NCBI GenBank assembly: GCA_048886185.1
Contig: JBHLKY010000014.1
Location: 60,001-92,000 of the forward strand
DNA from: Candidatus Hermodarchaeota archaeon
GTDB taxonomy: Archaea; Asgardarchaeota; Heimdallarchaeia; Hodarchaeales; Hodarchaeaceae
DNA length: 32,000 bases
Reading direction: 5' to 3'
Both the position numbers and the translations under genes were made by a program. The notes below the pieces were generated by a model. That model ran no database searches. It saw only the letters and a list, made by a program, of their open reading frames with translations, and was not told where the DNA came from. This document shows, one piece after another, positions 2,310-23,462 of the stretch. How positions within the stretch are numbered: the stretch's first letter is position 1; the number at the start of each line of letters is the position of its first letter.

Positions 2310-3602
2310 CTAATTTGTTCGTTGTTCTTTCCCACCTTCAATAACTCCCCACCCTATTAGTCTCCATCTACGATCTATTTGACGGCTAATTGCGACTCGG
2401 GTGCCTAATTCAGCACAAACAGGAAGACGAAGATCTACTTGAATACCCTTTTTACTGGTTTTTGTTACTTTACCAACGGTTTTGGCAGTAGCAACGCTCA
2501 ACATAAGGTTTTCATTTAATTCAATGTCATGAACTAAAGTCTGAACTTCACTCCCAACGACACGCTCTAAAAGATGTCTATCAAGTTCTAAAAGATTCCA
2601 AACTGGTGGAAGTTCTTCAGGATATCCAACTACATGCCCTACGAGAGAATCACTTTTCGTTAAAGAGGGATCAACTTCTGTTCCAATTCCGATAAGCCCT
2701 CCTGGTAATGCGGTCTCTAGTTCACCAAACCCACTTCTTAAGCTTACAATTTTTGTGCGGATAACTTGCCATTTACTACCTTTTCGATTTCCAGGCAGTA
2801 TTTCGATTTCATCGTTAACTGAGAACTTTCCTTGAACAATACTTCCTCCCACAACTCCGCCCTTCAAGTTTGTAGGAGATTGTCCTGGTCTATTCACATC
2901 AAAGGAGCGAGCTACTAGCATCCGAGGTGTAATACTTTCATCTCGTTTTGGTGTTGGGATCTGCTCCTCAATATTTTGAATTAACATATCAATATTAGTG
3001 TGGTGAATGGCGCTAATAGGGATTATGGGAGAATTTTTGGCACTAGTTTTTGAAATAAACTTTACAAGATCTTTATAATTTTGAATTGCCGCCTTTTCAG
3101 AAACTAATTCAATTTTATTTTGACATAAAATAACTTTCTCCATCCCTATGATCTCCATTGCTGCAAGATGTTCACGAGTTTGAGGCATAGGAACTCTTTC
3201 ATTAGCTGCAACGACTAAAAGGGCTCCGTCCATTATACTTGCTCCAGATAGCATGGTTGCCATTAGTACCTCATGGCCTGGAGCATCAACAAATGCAACT
3301 CGACGAAGGAGAGTTGTTTCTTTCCCACAGATGGGGCACTTTTCTTGAGTAGTATATTTTGCTGGACTCTCACAATCAGGACAAGCCCGGAATTCTGTTT
3401 CAGCATATCCTAATCGGATAGAGATTCCACGACGGATTTCCTCACTGTGTGTGTCGGGAAATTTTCCCGTTAGGGCTTCGGTTAAAGTTGACTTTCCATG
3501 GTCTACGTGCCCAATCATTCCTATTGAGATCTCTGCTTGTTTGGGCTTTTCTGGGGATTCAGTCTTTTTTTTGGCTGGAGATCTTCTTTTCTTTTTTGTC
3601 AT
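2310..3602 (-). CDS. eif2g: Translation initiation factor 2 subunit gamma
   Basis: GHVDHGKST, RGISIRLGY, CxxC/CxxC zinc ribbon, DAPGHE, NKIE and C-terminal RWRLIGWG. Confidence 0.97.
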   Translation of the reverse strand: MTKKKRRSPAKKKTESPEKPKQAEISIGMIGHVDHGKSTLTEALTGKFPDTHSEEIRRGISIRLGYAETEFRACPDCESPAKYTTQEKCPICGKETTLLRRVAFVDAPGHEVLMATMLSGASIMDGALLVVAANERVPMPQTREHLAAMEIIGMEKVILCQNKIELVSEKAAIQNYKDLVKFISKTSAKNSPIIPISAIHHTNIDMLIQNIEEQIPTPKRDESITPRMLVARSFDVNRPGQSPTNLKGGVVGGSIVQGKFSVNDEIEILPGNRKGSKWQVIRTKIVSLRSGFGELETALPGGLIGIGTEVDPSLTKSDSLVGHVVGYPEELPPVWNLLELDRHLLERVVGSEVQTLVHDIELNENLMLSVATAKTVGKVTKTSKKGIQVDLRLPVCAELGTRVAISRQIDRRWRLIGWGVIEGGKEQRTN

Positions 3603-11453: not shown

Positions 11454-12044
11454 TTACCAATTTTGATAACTTGTCCCCAATTTTTGAACAGATAATTCTT
11501 TAACCCGATTTCGGAAAGGACGACATCCATTCTTCGTTTTCAATGATAGGAGAAACAGTTCAAACTCAGGAAGATTATAGGATTTTAATAATGCTATATT
11601 TTGTTCTACAATTTCTCTTTTCACTTTATCAATTTTATTCAGCACAACAATTGGAGGAAGATTAGTTCTATCAGATATGAATTGGATCATTTCAATATCT
11701 AAAGGGACAATCTGCTTTTTCTCTAAACTAGCCACCACTAAATGGAAGGTTGAAACATCAATAATATGTATTGCAAACAATAGTTGGTTTGATGGATCCT
11801 CTAAAAAGTGAACAATGTCATCCTTTATCTGACTTTCACATTTCTTTGAGCGTTTTGTTATCCGTCCAAACCCAGGAAGATCTACCAAGTGCAGATTTTT
11901 AATAAGAGGGATTGAGGTTATTGTTATAGTTGTTCCAGCTTGTTTTCCGACAGGTCTTTTTGAATGGCTTAGATAATTTACTAAAGAGGTTTTTCCTGCA
12001 TTTGGGCGGCCTGAAATGGGTATTAAATAGATTAAAGGCATCAT
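11454..12044 (-). CDS. engB: EngB/YihA-family GTPase
   Basis: G1 GRPNAGKT, G2 GTT, G3 DLPGFG and G4 NKID. Confidence 0.85.
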   Translation of the reverse strand: MMPLIYLIPISGRPNAGKTSLVNYLSHSKRPVGKQAGTTITITSIPLIKNLHLVDLPGFGRITKRSKKCESQIKDDIVHFLEDPSNQLLFAIHIIDVSTFHLVVASLEKKQIVPLDIEMIQFISDRTNLPPIVVLNKIDKVKREIVEQNIALLKSYNLPEFELFLLSLKTKNGCRPFRNRVKELSVQKLGTSYQNW

Positions 12045-12337: not shown

Positions 12338-13519
12338 CTACCTTCTCCTACCTCGCTGCCCCTTTTTTATTTGTCGAAGTCGTCTATCACGTCTTGATTC
12401 CTTAGATTGAGCGGGAAGAGGTTCCCCAGTCTGATCCGCGGCTGCTTGAGAGACAGGTTCATCCAAAATACTCTGTTCTGATTTAATAATCAATATCTTT
12501 CTTCCTGATCCAATTAGATAGGCAATACTTCCGCAAAGAAAGAAAATAATAGCAAATCCGCCCAAAAATATTAACATTTGAATTAAATCCTGTTCTGAAA
12601 TAGTATAAGGTGGAAGAGGCTCGGATTTTGTCGCTGCTAGCCACTCAATACTATTAAGCCATAATAGGGAGTTGTTTTCACTTTCATACCAAGAATAATT
12701 TTCGATGGGACCTTTTAAATCACTGAACATTAGGCTGGAACCACTAAGTAGGACACGTGCCCCAGTTTTAAGGTCATCACCAGAGCTACCAAACAATATG
12801 ATATCCGTCGTGAGTCCACCTGTTTCACTGAATTCTCCTGATATTGTTTTAGCAACAGCCTCAGGTGTAGCAACAAGAATATTTTGACTGGCATCTTCTA
12901 GTGAACAAGTATAAGTGATAATTGAAGTTACATTCTTATTTATATTTAGAATAGCATGATTGGAAGTATTAGGTTTGAGGTGTAAGTAATTAGAAGCCCC
13001 AATATTTGAAAACTCATTAAGAACTACATTAGAGGGTGTAATATCATCCACCACTTTATAATATGTCCAGAACTTGCCCATAAGAAATCCATTTTCAAGA
13101 TATCCTAAGAATTCGTTAAATATATCCCCACGACCAGTTAAAGTTTCATTATCTTCATTTAAGGGATTTGCGAGTAGAAATATTGCGTTACCTTGAGTAA
13201 TAAATCTGTTAACATAAATACTTTCATCTCTTGTATATCTTACTTGGGGATTTGTAGAAATAAATATATCTACACCCTCAAAACTAGTGTTATTGATTTT
13301 TCCTGTATTGAAAACTACTTCTATTTCCTTACTTATTAAATCTGATATTGCTTGACTATACAAAGAGCGATTAAAAAATTGGCCGTGGCCTTCATCAAAT
13401 AAAACAACAATTGGATCATCTATTGCTTGATCAGCAATTCCAAATGCCAAAACATTATTAAGACTGAATATAATACAAATGGCTACGTATAAAAAGATTT
13501 TTTGGGATTTAATAATCAC
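12338..13519 (-). CDS. Secreted single-pass membrane protein with DUF4350/GldG (GIFT)-like domain
   Basis: N-terminal hydrophobic signal, VLFDEGHGQ..DIFISTNP..FITQG pattern, a C-terminal TM helix and an Arg-rich tail. Confidence 0.6.
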   Translation of the reverse strand: MIIKSQKIFLYVAICIIFSLNNVLAFGIADQAIDDPIVVLFDEGHGQFFNRSLYSQAISDLISKEIEVVFNTGKINNTSFEGVDIFISTNPQVRYTRDESIYVNRFITQGNAIFLLANPLNEDNETLTGRGDIFNEFLGYLENGFLMGKFWTYYKVVDDITPSNVVLNEFSNIGASNYLHLKPNTSNHAILNINKNVTSIITYTCSLEDASQNILVATPEAVAKTISGEFSETGGLTTDIILFGSSGDDLKTGARVLLSGSSLMFSDLKGPIENYSWYESENNSLLWLNSIEWLAATKSEPLPPYTISEQDLIQMLIFLGGFAIIFFLCGSIAYLIGSGRKILIIKSEQSILDEPVSQAAADQTGEPLPAQSKESRRDRRLRQIKKGQRGRRR

Positions 13520-13698: not shown

Positions 13699-14139
13699 AT
13701 GGTAACAGCACAAATGGTTCCCAGTAAATTGCTAATAGAAGCTATTTCTGAGGAGTTAATGTCAAGTGACATTTTTAGACCACCTAAATGGGCTGAATTT
13801 GTTAAATCAGGGGTTTCTCAAGAAAACGCACCAGAGCAAAGAAAAGAATGGTGGTTTATTCGTGTTGCTTCGATCTTAAGGAAGATTTACCTATATGGGC
13901 CCGTTGGAGTGATGCATATTAGAAAAATGTTTGGTGGAAGAAAGAATCGAGGAAGTAAACCAGAAAAAACAGCTCGAGGCTCTGGTGCTATTGTCCGTCA
14001 CGCAATTCACCAACTAGAAAAAGGGGGTTACGTCACACTTGTTTCTAACGGAAGGATTGTTACTCCAGAAGGTCGAAGATTTGTAGATAGTATAGCCTAT
14101 AAAGTTAAACAACAACTTCCAGAACTCGCAGCATATTAA
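13699..14139 (+). CDS. rps19e: Ribosomal protein S19e
   Basis: PPKWAEFVKSG, WWFIRVASILRKIY, GSGAIVRHAIHQLE and GRIVTPEGR. Confidence 0.97.
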   Translation: MVTAQMVPSKLLIEAISEELMSSDIFRPPKWAEFVKSGVSQENAPEQRKEWWFIRVASILRKIYLYGPVGVMHIRKMFGGRKNRGSKPEKTARGSGAIVRHAIHQLEKGGYVTLVSNGRIVTPEGRRFVDSIAYKVKQQLPELAAY

Positions 14140-14266: not shown

Positions 14267-14608
14267 ATGGCTGAAGAAGATCCTGAATTGGAAGCAATCC
14301 GTAAAAGACGTCTTGCGCAATTACAAAATGAACAACTTGCTCAGCAACAAGCGGAAGAACAACAAAGAATAATTGAAAATCAGCGACAGGCAATTCTAAA
14401 AGGAATATTAACAAATGCAGCACGGGAAAGACTTGCTAATATCAAATTAGCGAAACCAGAATATGCAACCACTTTGGAGAACCAATTAATTCAACTTGCT
14501 CAAACCAGACGAGTATCTGGAAAAATAAATGACTCTCAATTACGACAGCTTTTACAACAATTGACAAAATCTCAGCGTGAAAGTAAGATCACTTTCAAAC
14601 GAAGATAA
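14267..14608 (+). CDS. PDCD5/DUF122 DNA-binding protein
   Basis: ELEAIRKRRLAQL, ILT..ARERLANIKL and ENQLIQLA; canonical neighbour of rps19e. Confidence 0.92.
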   Translation: MAEEDPELEAIRKRRLAQLQNEQLAQQQAEEQQRIIENQRQAILKGILTNAARERLANIKLAKPEYATTLENQLIQLAQTRRVSGKINDSQLRQLLQQLTKSQRESKITFKRR

Positions 14609-18599: not shown

Positions 18600-18854
18600 T
18601 TAATCGATTTTTATCTTATAATACTTCCTTTTAGGTTTTTTAGGAGGAGTTTCATTCTCTTGTCGTGATTTATAGGGTTGAGGGTGACTGAATTGTTTTT
18701 CAATGTTTCTAGCAGTCATTTGAGAGATTTTAGAGTTGATTAATTGTAATTCAGAGGTATTAGGACGATATTTTTTTAAAATCTCTTGAAATTCTCGGAG
18801 AATCAAGTTGACCTTGTCTTTTTCGATTGACATGACACATATCTCACAAGTCAC
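18600..18854 (-). CDS. Small hypothetical protein (N-terminal CxxC, basic C-terminus)
   Basis: 84-aa ORF filling an otherwise empty gap; no recognisable family. Confidence 0.45.
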   Translation of the reverse strand: MTCEICVMSIEKDKVNLILREFQEILKKYRPNTSELQLINSKISQMTARNIEKQFSHPQPYKSRQENETPPKKPKRKYYKIKID

Positions 18855-19062: not shown

Positions 19063-21507
19063 GTGAAAAAAATGCCTAAATTTACTATTGAAGAAGCTGA
19101 AAAATTGCTTATCAACCGAAAATTTGTTCGTAATCTTGGTGTGATCGCCCATATAGACCACGGTAAATCTACACTAACTGATTCCCTCCTTGCAGCCTGT
19201 GGACTTCTAGCTGAAAAGATTGCTGGAGAAGCTCGAGCTACAGATACCCGAGAAGACGAACAAGAGCGCGGGATAACAATTAAAACGACAGGAATTTCAC
19301 TGGTTCATGAATTTGATCAAAAAACATATCTTATTAATCTTCAAGACACCCCTGGGCATGTTGATTTCTCAGGTGAAGTTACTTCTGCTTTACGAGTAGT
19401 CGATGGCGCTCTAGTTCTCGTCGACGCTGTAGAGGGAGTTATGGTTCAAACTGAAGTTGTTACTCAACAAGCTCTAGCTGAACGAGTTCGTCCCGTTTTG
19501 ATAATCAACAAAGTCGACCGTCTAATTACTGAAATGCGAATGTCACCCGAAGACGCCTATGAGAAGTTTAAAACAATTATAAATGAGTTTAATATTCTCA
19601 TAGAAACATATGCACCCCCAGAATATAAGAAAATTTGGCGAGTAGATCCTCGACAAGGTACAGTAGCTTTTGGTTCGGCAATCCATCGTTTTGGATTAAC
19701 AATTCCAGCTTTAGCGAAAATTTGGCATGAAAAAACAAGCCAGCCAACTGAAGTACTGATCAAAAACCTCTGGATGAAAAATAACTTTGTAAATGGGGTT
19801 CTAAAACCAACTTATGAAATATATCAAAAAGCGGAAGACAATGATCTAGATTCCCTTAAAAAAGTAGCAAAACAATTAGAACTGCGCATCGACGAAGAAG
19901 TATGGCTTGAACCTCCAAAAAGAATAGCTAAAGCGTTATTAGAAAAATGGCTTCCTGTAGAGAAAGCTGTTTTAGACATGGTTGTCCAATTTTGCCCCTC
20001 ACCTATTGAAGCCCAGAACTATCGATTTAAAAGTTTTTGGAAAGGAAAATTTGATACACCTGAAGGAAAATCGATGTTAGAATGCGATGAAAATGGACCA
20101 GTCATGATAGCAATTTCTAAAATGATCCCGGGAAAAGCAAAGAGAATAATTGCAATGGGAAGGATTTTTTCTGGTACAGTAAGAACTGGGCAGAAAATTA
20201 CAGCATTACTTCCAGGATATAAACCAGGTAAGAAAGAGAGACAATTTACAACGAACGTACAGCAGGTTTCAATGCTTATGGGAGCAAAAACAGAAAAAGT
20301 TGATTCAATTCCTGCTGGGAATATTGTAGCATTGCAAGGATTACGTGGAGCTACAGCAAGTAGCACTATAACTAACCTTGAAACGACAATGCCATTTCAT
20401 GCTCTTTCTTATGCAGTTGAACCTGTTGTTACTATTGCCATAGAAGCAAAGTCTCCAAGCGAATTACCAAAATTAGCAGAAGGAATGCAGCTTATGGAGT
20501 TAGTTGATCCTTCATTGAGGACAAAAATTAATGAAGAAACAGGAGAGTATCTACTTTCAGGAACAGGGGAACTACACCTAGAAATTGCTGTTAAAGATCT
20601 TCAAGATCTTCAACATATAGAGGTGATACAAAGTGAGCCAATAGTTGTTTTCAGGGAATCTGTTAAAGGTGTATCTTATCAACAATCCTTAGCAAAGTCC
20701 CCAAATAAACATAACAGATTGTGGGTTCGCGCTGCACCACTTGATCCTACTGCTATTAGACTCATTGAGGAAGGAGTAATACATCAGTATTCAGACCGAA
20801 AAGAGATGGCTAATATACTCAGAGACGAAGCTGGATGGGATTCTAAGGAAGGAAGAAGAGTTTGGGGAATGGGCCCAGAAGAAGATGACCCGAATTTCTA
20901 TATAAATGCGACCAAAGGGGTCCAATACTTACGAGAAGTCAAAGATTATATTATTCAAGGTTTTAGGTGGGCCGCTAAGGAAGGACCTCTTTGTGGGGAA
21001 CCATTTTATGGAGTTCAGTTCCTGCTTGAAGATGTGAAACTTCATGAAGACCCAGTTCACAGGGGGGCAGGACAAATCATGCCAGTTTCCCGGAGGGCAT
21101 GCTTTGGAGCTATGTTAATGGCAGAACCCATCCTTTTAGAACCCATTTACAAAGTACAAGTACAAGTCCCAGAGCAGTACCTTGGCAATGTTTACAAGGT
21201 TCTTACCAAGAGACGAGGGAAAGTAATTGACACTCAGAAGCGAGAAGGAACACCTTTAAACGTTATTATTGCTGAGGTTCCAGTTACAGAATCATTCGGG
21301 ATTACAACAGAGTTACGTTCTGAAACTTCTGGTTTTGCTTTCAGTCAAATGGTATTTAATCATTGGGAAAAAGTACCAGGAGATCCAACTAAACCTGAAG
21401 ACGAAGGGGGTAGCTTAGCTCGTCAATTCGTAATAGCAACTCGAAAACGTAAAGGTTTTCATAATCCTCTTCCGCCCAAACCAGAGGAATATTATGATAA
21501 GTTGTGA
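19063..21507 (+). CDS. fusA: Elongation factor EF-2, long eukaryote-like form with the diphthamide His
   Basis: AHIDHGKST, RGITIK, DTPGH, NKVDR and LHEDPVHRGAGQ. It is 814 aa long and ends in EEYYDKL. The start is GTG 19063 or ATG 19072. Confidence 0.97.
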   Translation: MKKMPKFTIEEAEKLLINRKFVRNLGVIAHIDHGKSTLTDSLLAACGLLAEKIAGEARATDTREDEQERGITIKTTGISLVHEFDQKTYLINLQDTPGHVDFSGEVTSALRVVDGALVLVDAVEGVMVQTEVVTQQALAERVRPVLIINKVDRLITEMRMSPEDAYEKFKTIINEFNILIETYAPPEYKKIWRVDPRQGTVAFGSAIHRFGLTIPALAKIWHEKTSQPTEVLIKNLWMKNNFVNGVLKPTYEIYQKAEDNDLDSLKKVAKQLELRIDEEVWLEPPKRIAKALLEKWLPVEKAVLDMVVQFCPSPIEAQNYRFKSFWKGKFDTPEGKSMLECDENGPVMIAISKMIPGKAKRIIAMGRIFSGTVRTGQKITALLPGYKPGKKERQFTTNVQQVSMLMGAKTEKVDSIPAGNIVALQGLRGATASSTITNLETTMPFHALSYAVEPVVTIAIEAKSPSELPKLAEGMQLMELVDPSLRTKINEETGEYLLSGTGELHLEIAVKDLQDLQHIEVIQSEPIVVFRESVKGVSYQQSLAKSPNKHNRLWVRAAPLDPTAIRLIEEGVIHQYSDRKEMANILRDEAGWDSKEGRRVWGMGPEEDDPNFYINATKGVQYLREVKDYIIQGFRWAAKEGPLCGEPFYGVQFLLEDVKLHEDPVHRGAGQIMPVSRRACFGAMLMAEPILLEPIYKVQVQVPEQYLGNVYKVLTKRRGKVIDTQKREGTPLNVIIAEVPVTESFGITTELRSETSGFAFSQMVFNHWEKVPGDPTKPEDEGGSLARQFVIATRKRKGFHNPLPPKPEEYYDKL

Positions 21508-21787: not shown

Positions 21788-22066
21788 TTATTGACGATCC
21801 TTTCGCTCATCCTCGGCCCTAATTTTGACATGATGCCTGTGAATTGCACATGAGACACAATAATACCTCACATACGGAACACGAGCAATATGGGTGCCTT
21901 GTTGCCGCAATTCTTTACCTACTGCATAATCGACAAGAGTTTTATAGCTCGTTTTCCGTTTAGCTTTATCACGTGGTATCATACGATTACAAGAAGAACA
22001 TTGAACCTTTGCAAGAGTACCTTTTTTGCCCTTACTTCGTCCACCAGACTTACGTTTCTTACCCAA
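21788..22066 (-). CDS. rps26e: Ribosomal protein S26e
   Basis: KRKSGGRSK, VQCSSC..IPRDKA and YYCVSCAIH. TTG start with GAGG upstream. Confidence 0.95.
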   Translation of the reverse strand: MGKKRKSGGRSKGKKGTLAKVQCSSCNRMIPRDKAKRKTSYKTLVDYAVGKELRQQGTHIARVPYVRYYCVSCAIHRHHVKIRAEDERKDRQ

Positions 22067-23003: not shown

Positions 23004-23462
23004 CTAACTCAACAAATCCTTAAGTTCTGAGACGAGACTGGAGATATCTTTCTCTTCTTCCTTAAAGATTTCAGGTATTTTACGACTGTAACGACGTAAC
23101 ACTCTAATGGCTAATCCTAAGGAGTGTGCTTCATTGGAAGCACCAATTAAAATGAAATCTTCAGCTGAACTTAACACAGTGTAACCTTTTTCACCACGAA
23201 CTAAGACTTCCCATAAATGACCATGATCCATTCTATCTACAACCATCCCACCGGTAGAGAGTACGGCTGCAGATAATGCAGAGAAAAGATCGGGATCGGC
23301 ATCCTTCTCAGAGAAAAATGCAACACTCATTCCAGTTCGGGTAACTAACGCTAATGCTTCAAGATCCGCATACCGAACTATTTCTTGCAATAATTTGATT
23401 AATTTCTTCTTTTGTTCTACTGTAAGTGCAAAAGCCATTTTTCCACCTTCAAAGAAACCCAT
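23004..23462 (-). CDS. Roadblock/LC7 (MglB/LAMTOR2-like) protein
   Basis: ALALVTRTG, DLFSALSAAVL, EVLVRGEKGYTVL and LGL pattern, with a short C-terminal helical extension. Confidence 0.85.
   Translation of the reverse strand: MGFFEGGKMAFALTVEQKKKLIKLLQEIVRYADLEALALVTRTGMSVAFFSEKDADPDLFSALSAAVLSTGGMVVDRMDHGHLWEVLVRGEKGYTVLSSAEDFILIGASNEAHSLGLAIRVLRRYSRKIPEIFKEEEKDISSLVSELKDLLS

Follow-up and report, generated by a model that had tools for sequence, protein, structure and literature searches.

Narrowe et al. 2018 (PMC6143161) reported that the Heimdall LC3 clade alone among the Asgard archaea keeps dph1/2, dph5 and dph6 together with a single canonical elongation factor 2 (EF-2), and that eukaryotic eEF2, Ria1 and Snu114 are sister to the LC3-clade EF-2 (support 100/100) and have insertions and deletions (indels) in common with it. 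Eme et al. 2023 (PMC10307638) extended the same pattern to all sampled Hodarchaeales. An EF-2 with eukaryote-shared indels in a lineage that kept the diphthamide pathway is one of few single-gene characters tying eukaryotes to one Asgard order, and such an EF-2 has also served to answer the charge that the Heimdall LC3 bins were contaminated. Here we describe the EF-2 gene in a 32,000-nucleotide stretch of a Candidatus Hermodarchaeota archaeon assembly (GCA_048886185.1, contig JBHLKY010000014.1, positions 60,001 to 92,000), referred to as the window, whose own numbering is used below unless another contig is named. We consider it highly probable that this gene, which carries insertions shared with eukaryotes, is the sole, intact EF-2 translocase of a Hodarchaeales (Heimdall LC3-type) archaeon, most likely inherited vertically from a common ancestor with the archaeal parent of eukaryotes. 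Every element of this finding is covered by the two studies above and is already known.

The EF-2 open reading frame (ORF) is one uninterrupted frame of 814 aa counted from a GTG codon, which agrees with an earlier note, made from the letters of this DNA alone, that had called the protein longer than archaeal EF-2; ordinary archaeal EF-2 measured 720-750 aa in our sample. The ATG at 19072 is a likelier start, giving a product of 811 aa that begins MPKFTIEE, because this length matches nearly all close homologs and aligns residue-for-residue with the eEF2 N-terminus. All five domains (G, II, III, IV and V) were detected above cut-off with the Pfam models GTP_EFTU, GTP_EFTU_D2/EF-G_D2, EFG_III, EFG_IV and EFG_C, and the GTPase motifs G1, G3 and G4 are intact (P-loop AHIDHGKST, DTPGHVDF and NKVD). 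The features of the gene are as follows, with the domain IV decoding loop defined as in Narrowe et al. 2018 (PMC6143161).

19063-21507 (+): EF-2 ORF, stop TAA at 21505-21507; 814 aa from GTG, probable start ATG 19072 (811 aa)
19126-19767 (+): GTPase (G) domain, residues 22-235; Pfam GTP_EFTU 1.8e-49, with P-loop, G3 and G4 motifs
19234-19272 (+): switch-I segment RATDTREDEQERG, residues 58-70, in the TDTR form common to eukaryotic eEF2
19732-19944 (+): helical G' insertion, residues 224-294, common to eEF2 and Snu114; from indel scan, HHalign, predicted model and structural alignment to yeast eEF2
20206-20232 (+): domain II insertion PGYKPGKKE, residues 382-390, nine residues; PNYxPGKKD in eukaryotes, absent from other archaea
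20692-20721 (+): domain IV decoding-centre loop AKSPNKHNRL, residues 544-553, kept as in canonical EF-2
21043-21066 (+): diphthamide loop HEDPVHRG, residues 661-668
21385-21411 (+): C-terminal insertion GDPTKPEDE, residues 775-783, partly common to eukaryotes (GDPxx)
21442-21504 (+): C-terminal tail RKRKGFHNPLPPKPEEYYDKL, common to archaeal and eukaryotic EF-2 and non-diagnostic

An indel scan of every alignment column was performed on 14 Hodarchaeales-type, 7 eukaryotic, 42 other archaeal and 6 bacterial rows. The G' insertion adds about 58 residues to the stretch 224-294 and was present in all Hodarchaeales-type and eukaryotic rows and in 0 of the 42 other archaeal rows. Additionally, Hodarchaeales and eukaryotes have in common indels of one or two residues at 540, 605-606 and 722-723, which were not found in other archaea. 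Two segments proved to be eukaryote-only, namely about 23 extra columns midway through G', following residue 238, and 9-14 residues in a G-domain loop after residue 84, and the column scan showed that both are absent from the window EF-2. Hodarchaeales EF-2 goes without these eukaryote-only segments and therefore has a length between those of archaeal EF-2 (aEF-2) and eEF2. The switch-I segment of the window protein, RATDTREDEQERG, has the form of eukaryotic eEF2 (R-F/Y-TDTR-x-DEQER), and other archaea carry RALDYLEEEQKRG or similar. In animals, the TDTR of eEF2 switch-I contains the target threonine of eEF2 kinase.

The end of the protein was also examined, since the earlier note had held that GDPTKP...RKRKG...YYDKL mirrors eEF2. 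The protein closes with ...ATRKRKGFHNPLPPKPEEYYDKL, and yeast eEF2 likewise closes with EYYDKL. The YYDKL tail was rejected as a eukaryotic signature, because ordinary archaeal EF-2 too can end in a tail of the form RKRKG...(E/D)Y(I/Y)D(K/T)L; the alignment has examples from Bathyarchaeota and from the Asgard families f12 and f18, such as ...PEEYIDTL and ...EEYYEKE. What stands of the claim is the short GDPxK insertion at residues 775-783, which is the only element of the C-terminal end that is specific to Hodarchaeales and eukaryotes.

We compared the G' inserts as profiles, aligning 11 Hodarchaeales inserts and, separately, 9 eukaryotic inserts. HHalign on the inserts alone gave a probability of 97% and a P of 1e-10 for an alignment of 72 columns (28% identity) that is interrupted once, by a 23-column gap corresponding to the eukaryotic sub-insert; the reversed control gave 0.2%. 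An AlphaFold model of residues 4-345 (domain I) had a mean predicted local distance difference test score (pLDDT) of 86, with 91-95 in the insert region. This model matched yeast eEF2 at Z 39.6, with a root-mean-square deviation of 1.6-2.3 Å over 314-341 of 342 residues, and matched archaeal EF-2 at Z of about 32 over 257-280 residues only; for the whole-protein model, eEF2 was the first structural match. The structure comparison that the earlier note had suggested thus came out on the side of eEF2, and the segment at about 19750-19960 that it had aligned with the eEF2 G' region falls inside the insertion. Its description of a eukaryote-type G' is right as to homology, with the correction that the insertion is shorter than in eukaryotes, the 23-column eukaryotic sub-insert being absent. 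We conclude that homology of the G' insertion to that of eEF2 is supported.

For the phylogeny we used 71 rows and 735 columns, with insertion columns removed by a 60% occupancy filter, and ran IQ-TREE under LG+C20+F+G4 with posterior mean site frequencies (PMSF). A genome-contig scan had yielded mostly bacterial EF-G and few named archaea, and its proteins were used solely as outgroup and reference rows. The window EF-2 and that of LC_3 fell in a Hodarchaeales-type clade with a Shimodaira-Hasegawa-like approximate likelihood ratio (SH-aLRT) support of 98. This clade was joined at SH-aLRT 100, on a stem of 0.38, to a eukaryote-like clade (SH-aLRT 100) that contained every named eukaryotic eEF2, Snu114-length proteins and long metagenomic relatives, and the window EF-2 lay outside the latter. 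An approximately unbiased (AU) test rejected a tree in which Hodarchaeales were constrained to group with the closest cluster of ordinary archaeal sequences (Bathyarchaeota, f12, f23 and paralogs), at a log-likelihood difference of 83.9 and p-AU of 0.002. The earlier note had asked for a phylogeny that includes the aEF-2p paralogs; in it the window EF-2 stands beside eukaryotic eEF2 and apart from ordinary archaeal EF-2. Both adverse outcomes that the earlier note had named, branching with ordinary archaeal EF-2 and an insert non-homologous to the eEF2 G', were examined, and neither occurred.

Metagenomic proteins of 805-850 aa (P0124, P0125, P0127, P0128, P0130, P0134, P0136 and P0144) formed an eEF2-like clade beside the named eukaryotic eEF2. 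The P-loop of several of them departs from the usual form and reads (A/C)(Q/H)VDAGKST; in P0127 the G' is as long as that of Hodarchaeales, the eukaryotic sub-insert being absent.

Several observations weigh against the placement with eukaryotes. A single-sequence phmmer search of PDB with the 73-residue insert alone found no match at E <= 1, and for this reason the homology of the insert was shown by profile-profile comparison and structure. The structural models are not independent of eEF2, as the alignment used included eukaryotic rows and AlphaFold had eEF2 structures in its training set. The tree came from a 'quick' search with SH-aLRT support only, just five of its rows are eukaryotic by source name or by a eukaryote-only collection, and the group held together in the AU test that gave a rejection was chosen with the tree already known. 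Another AU test, in which all archaea were kept together against eukaryotes and bacteria, cost a log-likelihood of only 1.3 (p 0.48) and was not rejected. A shift of the bacterial root to the eukaryotic stem is enough to satisfy this constraint, which is therefore uninformative, and with a cost of only 1.3 EF-2 alone gives adjacency and not the position of the root. Finally, identity over shared columns was 52% to Bathyarchaeota aEF-2 and 46% to jakobid eEF2. Raw identity being higher to Bathyarchaeota, the eukaryote affinity rests on indels and model-based phylogeny and not on overall similarity.

These points leave room for an artefact, in which a permissive surface site gained insertions by convergence and the sequences were drawn together by long-branch or compositional effects. 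The eukaryotic stem is indeed long (0.47), several rows have deviant composition, and the insert is just 18-27% identical to eukaryotic inserts in pairwise comparison, with the empty single-sequence search noted above. Convergence would have to account for insertions that coincide in position at three or more separate sites (G', domain II and the C-terminal region) as well as a similar switch-I motif, and for a profile-profile P value with a clean reversed control. Moreover, the insert columns had been taken out before tree building, which used a mixture model meant to lessen such effects, and the Hodarchaeales branch is short (0.12). We regard an artefact of this kind as very unlikely.

The proposed vertical inheritance of a eukaryote-related EF-2 in Hodarchaeales was next set against its distribution. 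The closest named homologs are proteins of metagenome-assembled genomes (MAGs) labelled Hodarchaeales, at 84-90% identity, followed by the Heimdall LC_3 EF-2 (P0051, 828 aa) at 63-65% in the same clade; after LC_3 identity drops to <=48%. These nearest relatives bear out the Heimdall LC3/Hodarchaeales affiliation that the earlier note had proposed. Orthologs 83-92% identical occur in about 20 congeneric genomes, and among 61 genomes of the class those of the same order have one full-length ortholog each, at 67-92% identity. All other families among these 61 genomes have an EF-2 of about 745 aa, in which the match is broken at residues 220-290, together with a paralog of 650-714 aa. The longer protein keeps the histidine but has HTG instead of HRG, and the paralog is without the diphthamide loop. 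Two copies of this kind correspond to the aEF-2/aEF-2p pairs described by Narrowe et al. 2018 (PMC6143161). The diphthamide and decoding loops of the paralogs are degenerate and both are canonical in the window protein, which is thus not an aEF-2p.

Across 121 genomes sampled from the phylum, dph2 was also found outside the order of the window, in families f22, f12 (4/5), f18 (3/3), f23 (6/6) and f17 (1/17), of which f23 is Jordarchaeia/Freyarchaeum-like by the names of its homologs. The spread of dph2 in Asgard therefore exceeds what has been published, namely that dph is kept by Hodarchaeales alone. Families f12, f18 and f23 have one EF-2 of ordinary length without the G' insert, and the f12 and f23 copies are 64-66% identical to Bathyarchaeota EF-2. 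A further sequence, L037 (CAVIXW010000014.1, labelled Acutalibacteraceae bacterium), encodes an archaeal-type EF-2 with 38% identity over residues 10-810 and is probably a mis-binned archaeal contig.

Such distributions bear on a horizontal origin, in which the gene passed from a stem eukaryote to the Hodarchaeales ancestor, or from a Hodarchaeales relative to the eukaryotic stem, so that the sister relation would say nothing about organismal ancestry. A single-gene tree cannot separate vertical descent from ancient transfer, and EF-2 does not fix the root; the dph-bearing Asgard families f23 (Jordarchaeia-like), f12 and f18 carry Bathyarchaeota-like EF-2, so EF-2 history within Asgard is not simply vertical. 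Against this, Hodarchaeales EF-2 is without the eukaryote-only sub-inserts, as expected of an earlier-branching form, every sampled member of the order has the gene in single copy, and multi-gene phylogenies put eukaryotes with or beside Hodarchaeales (Eme et al. 2023, PMC10307638). On balance a transfer appears distinctly unlikely.

We next considered whether the gene belongs to its genome at all. The host assembly is 4.84 Mb and 96% complete, with the window on contig 14. The best PDB sequence matches were eukaryotic eEF2 (725-700 bits), archaeal EF-2 reached <=632 bits, and the NCBIfam model TIGR00490, the equivalog of ordinary aEF-2, matched in two pieces at 705.7 bits, below its cut-off of 738.45. 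Scores higher to eEF2 than to archaeal EF-2 are what a eukaryotic gene or a mis-binned contig in the MAG would give, and contamination has been raised in print as an objection to Heimdall LC3 (Da Cunha 2017, in the form in which Narrowe et al. 2018, PMC6143161, cite it). The gene is without introns, however, and sits in the middle of a 32-kb window of archaeal and Asgard-type genes, among them S19e, S26e, RIO2, RPA and Roadblock; its G+C (0.36-0.40) is near that of the window (0.33-0.39), and identity to eukaryotic proteins does not rise above about 46%. EF-2 is flanked by an acyltransferase, ribosomal protein S26e and a conserved ORF of 84 aa, and the same flanks recur around the congeneric orthologs, including those in single-contig assemblies. 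Contamination is effectively refuted, being excluded for practical purposes and extremely improbable.

The window EF-2 is also the only one in this 96%-complete genome. There was no aEF-2p paralog, and the second match was an unrelated GTPase at E 6.6e-6. The genome search for dph2, dph5 and dph6 that the earlier note had recommended recovered one of each in an open frame (197.6, 203.6 and 185.7 bits, respectively), all over curated cut-offs. A Dph3-type CSL zinc ribbon protein was searched for in this genome and was not found, as expected for the archaeal pathway. Judged by its genes, the diphthamide pathway of the host is the archaeal three-gene form. His666 is intact within H-x-D-x-x-H-R-G (codon 21058-21060), as the earlier note had read from DPVHRG, and on the strength of this target residue and the three pathway genes we predict that it is very probably converted to diphthamide.

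By family knowledge, the five-domain GTPase would bind the ribosome after peptide-bond formation and move the tRNAs and mRNA by one codon, and the domain IV tip loops SPNKHNR and HEDPVHRG would reach the decoding centre. Diphthamide on His666 would be made by radical S-adenosylmethionine (SAM) transfer of the 3-amino-3-carboxypropyl (ACP) group by Dph2, methylation by Dph5 and amidation by Dph6. The characters shared with eukaryotes most likely arose in an ancestor common to Hodarchaeales and the archaeal parent of eukaryotes, with vertical inheritance thereafter, and eukaryotes would later have gained the G' sub-insert (23 profile columns) and the 9-14-residue G-domain loop.

A more far-reaching suggestion is that Hodarchaeales EF-2 is a putative surviving intermediate in a stepwise assembly of eEF2, with the G' extension and TDTR already engaged in eukaryote-like interactions (the P-stalk, the GTPase-associated centre, or phospho-regulation at Thr60/Thr62). 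If true, parts of eukaryotic elongation control would predate eukaryotes. A search of the genome for an alpha-kinase (eEF2K type) domain gave no match, and the control genomes gave none either, so that this negative carries little weight. We consider this suggestion unlikely.

The gene does not lie in a str-type operon. The ORF of 84 aa at 18600-18854 (-), between the acyltransferase and EF-2, had no Pfam match. It occupies the same position in 15 or more congeneric genomes, at 54-94% identity, and is probably a real small gene. Other neighbours of EF-2 are listed below.

11454-12044 (-): small GTPase
12338-13519 (-): 393-aa protein
13699-14139 (+): ribosomal protein S19e
14267-14608 (+): PDCD5-like dsDNA-binding protein
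21788-22066 (-): ribosomal protein S26e
23004-23462 (-): Roadblock/LC7 protein

The 393-aa protein matches the IFT52 GIFT domain weakly and below threshold (E 0.0017).

In two other Asgard lineages, short inserts that form hairpins were found to interrupt the EF-2 gene within the G3 motif, DTPG-HVDF. In genome G083 of family f22, whose EF-2 is of the eukaryote-like type, 64% identical to the window EF-2 and accompanied by dph2, a 33-nt insert with an in-frame TAA separates DTPG from HVDF. It folds into a 9-10-bp hairpin with 3-nt bulges and a short helix at the flanks, resembling a bulge-helix-bulge (BHB), and excising the 33 nt restores GHVDF; P0058, the sister protein of the G083 EF-2, has no insert. 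Three genomes of one f12 genus (G065, G132 and G075) have a frame-shifting 29-nt insert at the same G3 site. Here the hairpin CGAG(C/T)C...GGCT(C/T)G is kept through G-U-compatible substitutions, with a 4-bp helix, ACGT/GCGT, ahead of both junctions, and, with each bulge cut 2 nt in, the joined sequence reads GTA G|AC(T) TTC, which restores HVDF including the invariant Asp. The EF-2 gene of another f12 genus (L119) is uninterrupted. Judged from their folds, the f12 inserts look like tRNA-type (bulge-helix-bulge) mini-introns, and the G083 mRNA probably carries one as well. No insert of this kind is present in the window EF-2 gene. The inserts are located as follows.

L115 1766-1798: 33-nt insert, G083
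L116 ~3405-3433 (-), L117 ~1058-1086 and L118 ~1058-1086: 29-nt inserts, G065, G132 and G075

Taken with known systems, the window EF-2 is closest to the LC3-clade and Hodarchaeales EF-2. Both are a single canonical EF-2 with the domain IV loops, the eukaryote-shared indels, the archaeal dph1/2-dph5-dph6 set and a position at the base of eEF2, Ria1 and Snu114; no difference of kind separates them, and the window represents another genus of the order. The Asgard aEF-2/aEF-2p pair of lineages that lack dph (Narrowe et al. 2018, PMC6143161) belongs to the same superfamily and phylum, but it consists of two copies, 33-41% identical to the window EF-2, in genomes that have no dph2 in our sample. 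Ordinary aEF-2 (TIGR00490; Pyrococcus 5H7J, Methanoperedens 6U45 and Bathyarchaeota) has the same function, motifs, diphthamide histidine and RKRKG tail, with shared-column identity of <=52%, whereas it is about 730 aa long, has none of the insertions and stands apart in the tree.

The intact, single-copy EF-2 of conserved gene order in one more Hodarchaeales genus bears out the published pattern and is a firm taxonomic anchor for the window; it reveals no biology of a new type. The window EF-2 is of practical use as a well-behaved archaeal protein for experiments on the role of the G' extension and the modification of His666. With eEF2 (yeast, PDB 1N0U/1N0V) it has in common the five domains, a superposable G' extension, the domain II PGKK loop, TDTR, the diphthamide loop and a terminal DKL. 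It differs from eEF2 in being about 45% identical, in going without the G' sub-insert and the G-domain loop and in lying outside the eukaryotic clade; unlike the eukaryotic diphthamide pathway, that of the window genome has one Dph2, with no Dph3 CSL protein found.

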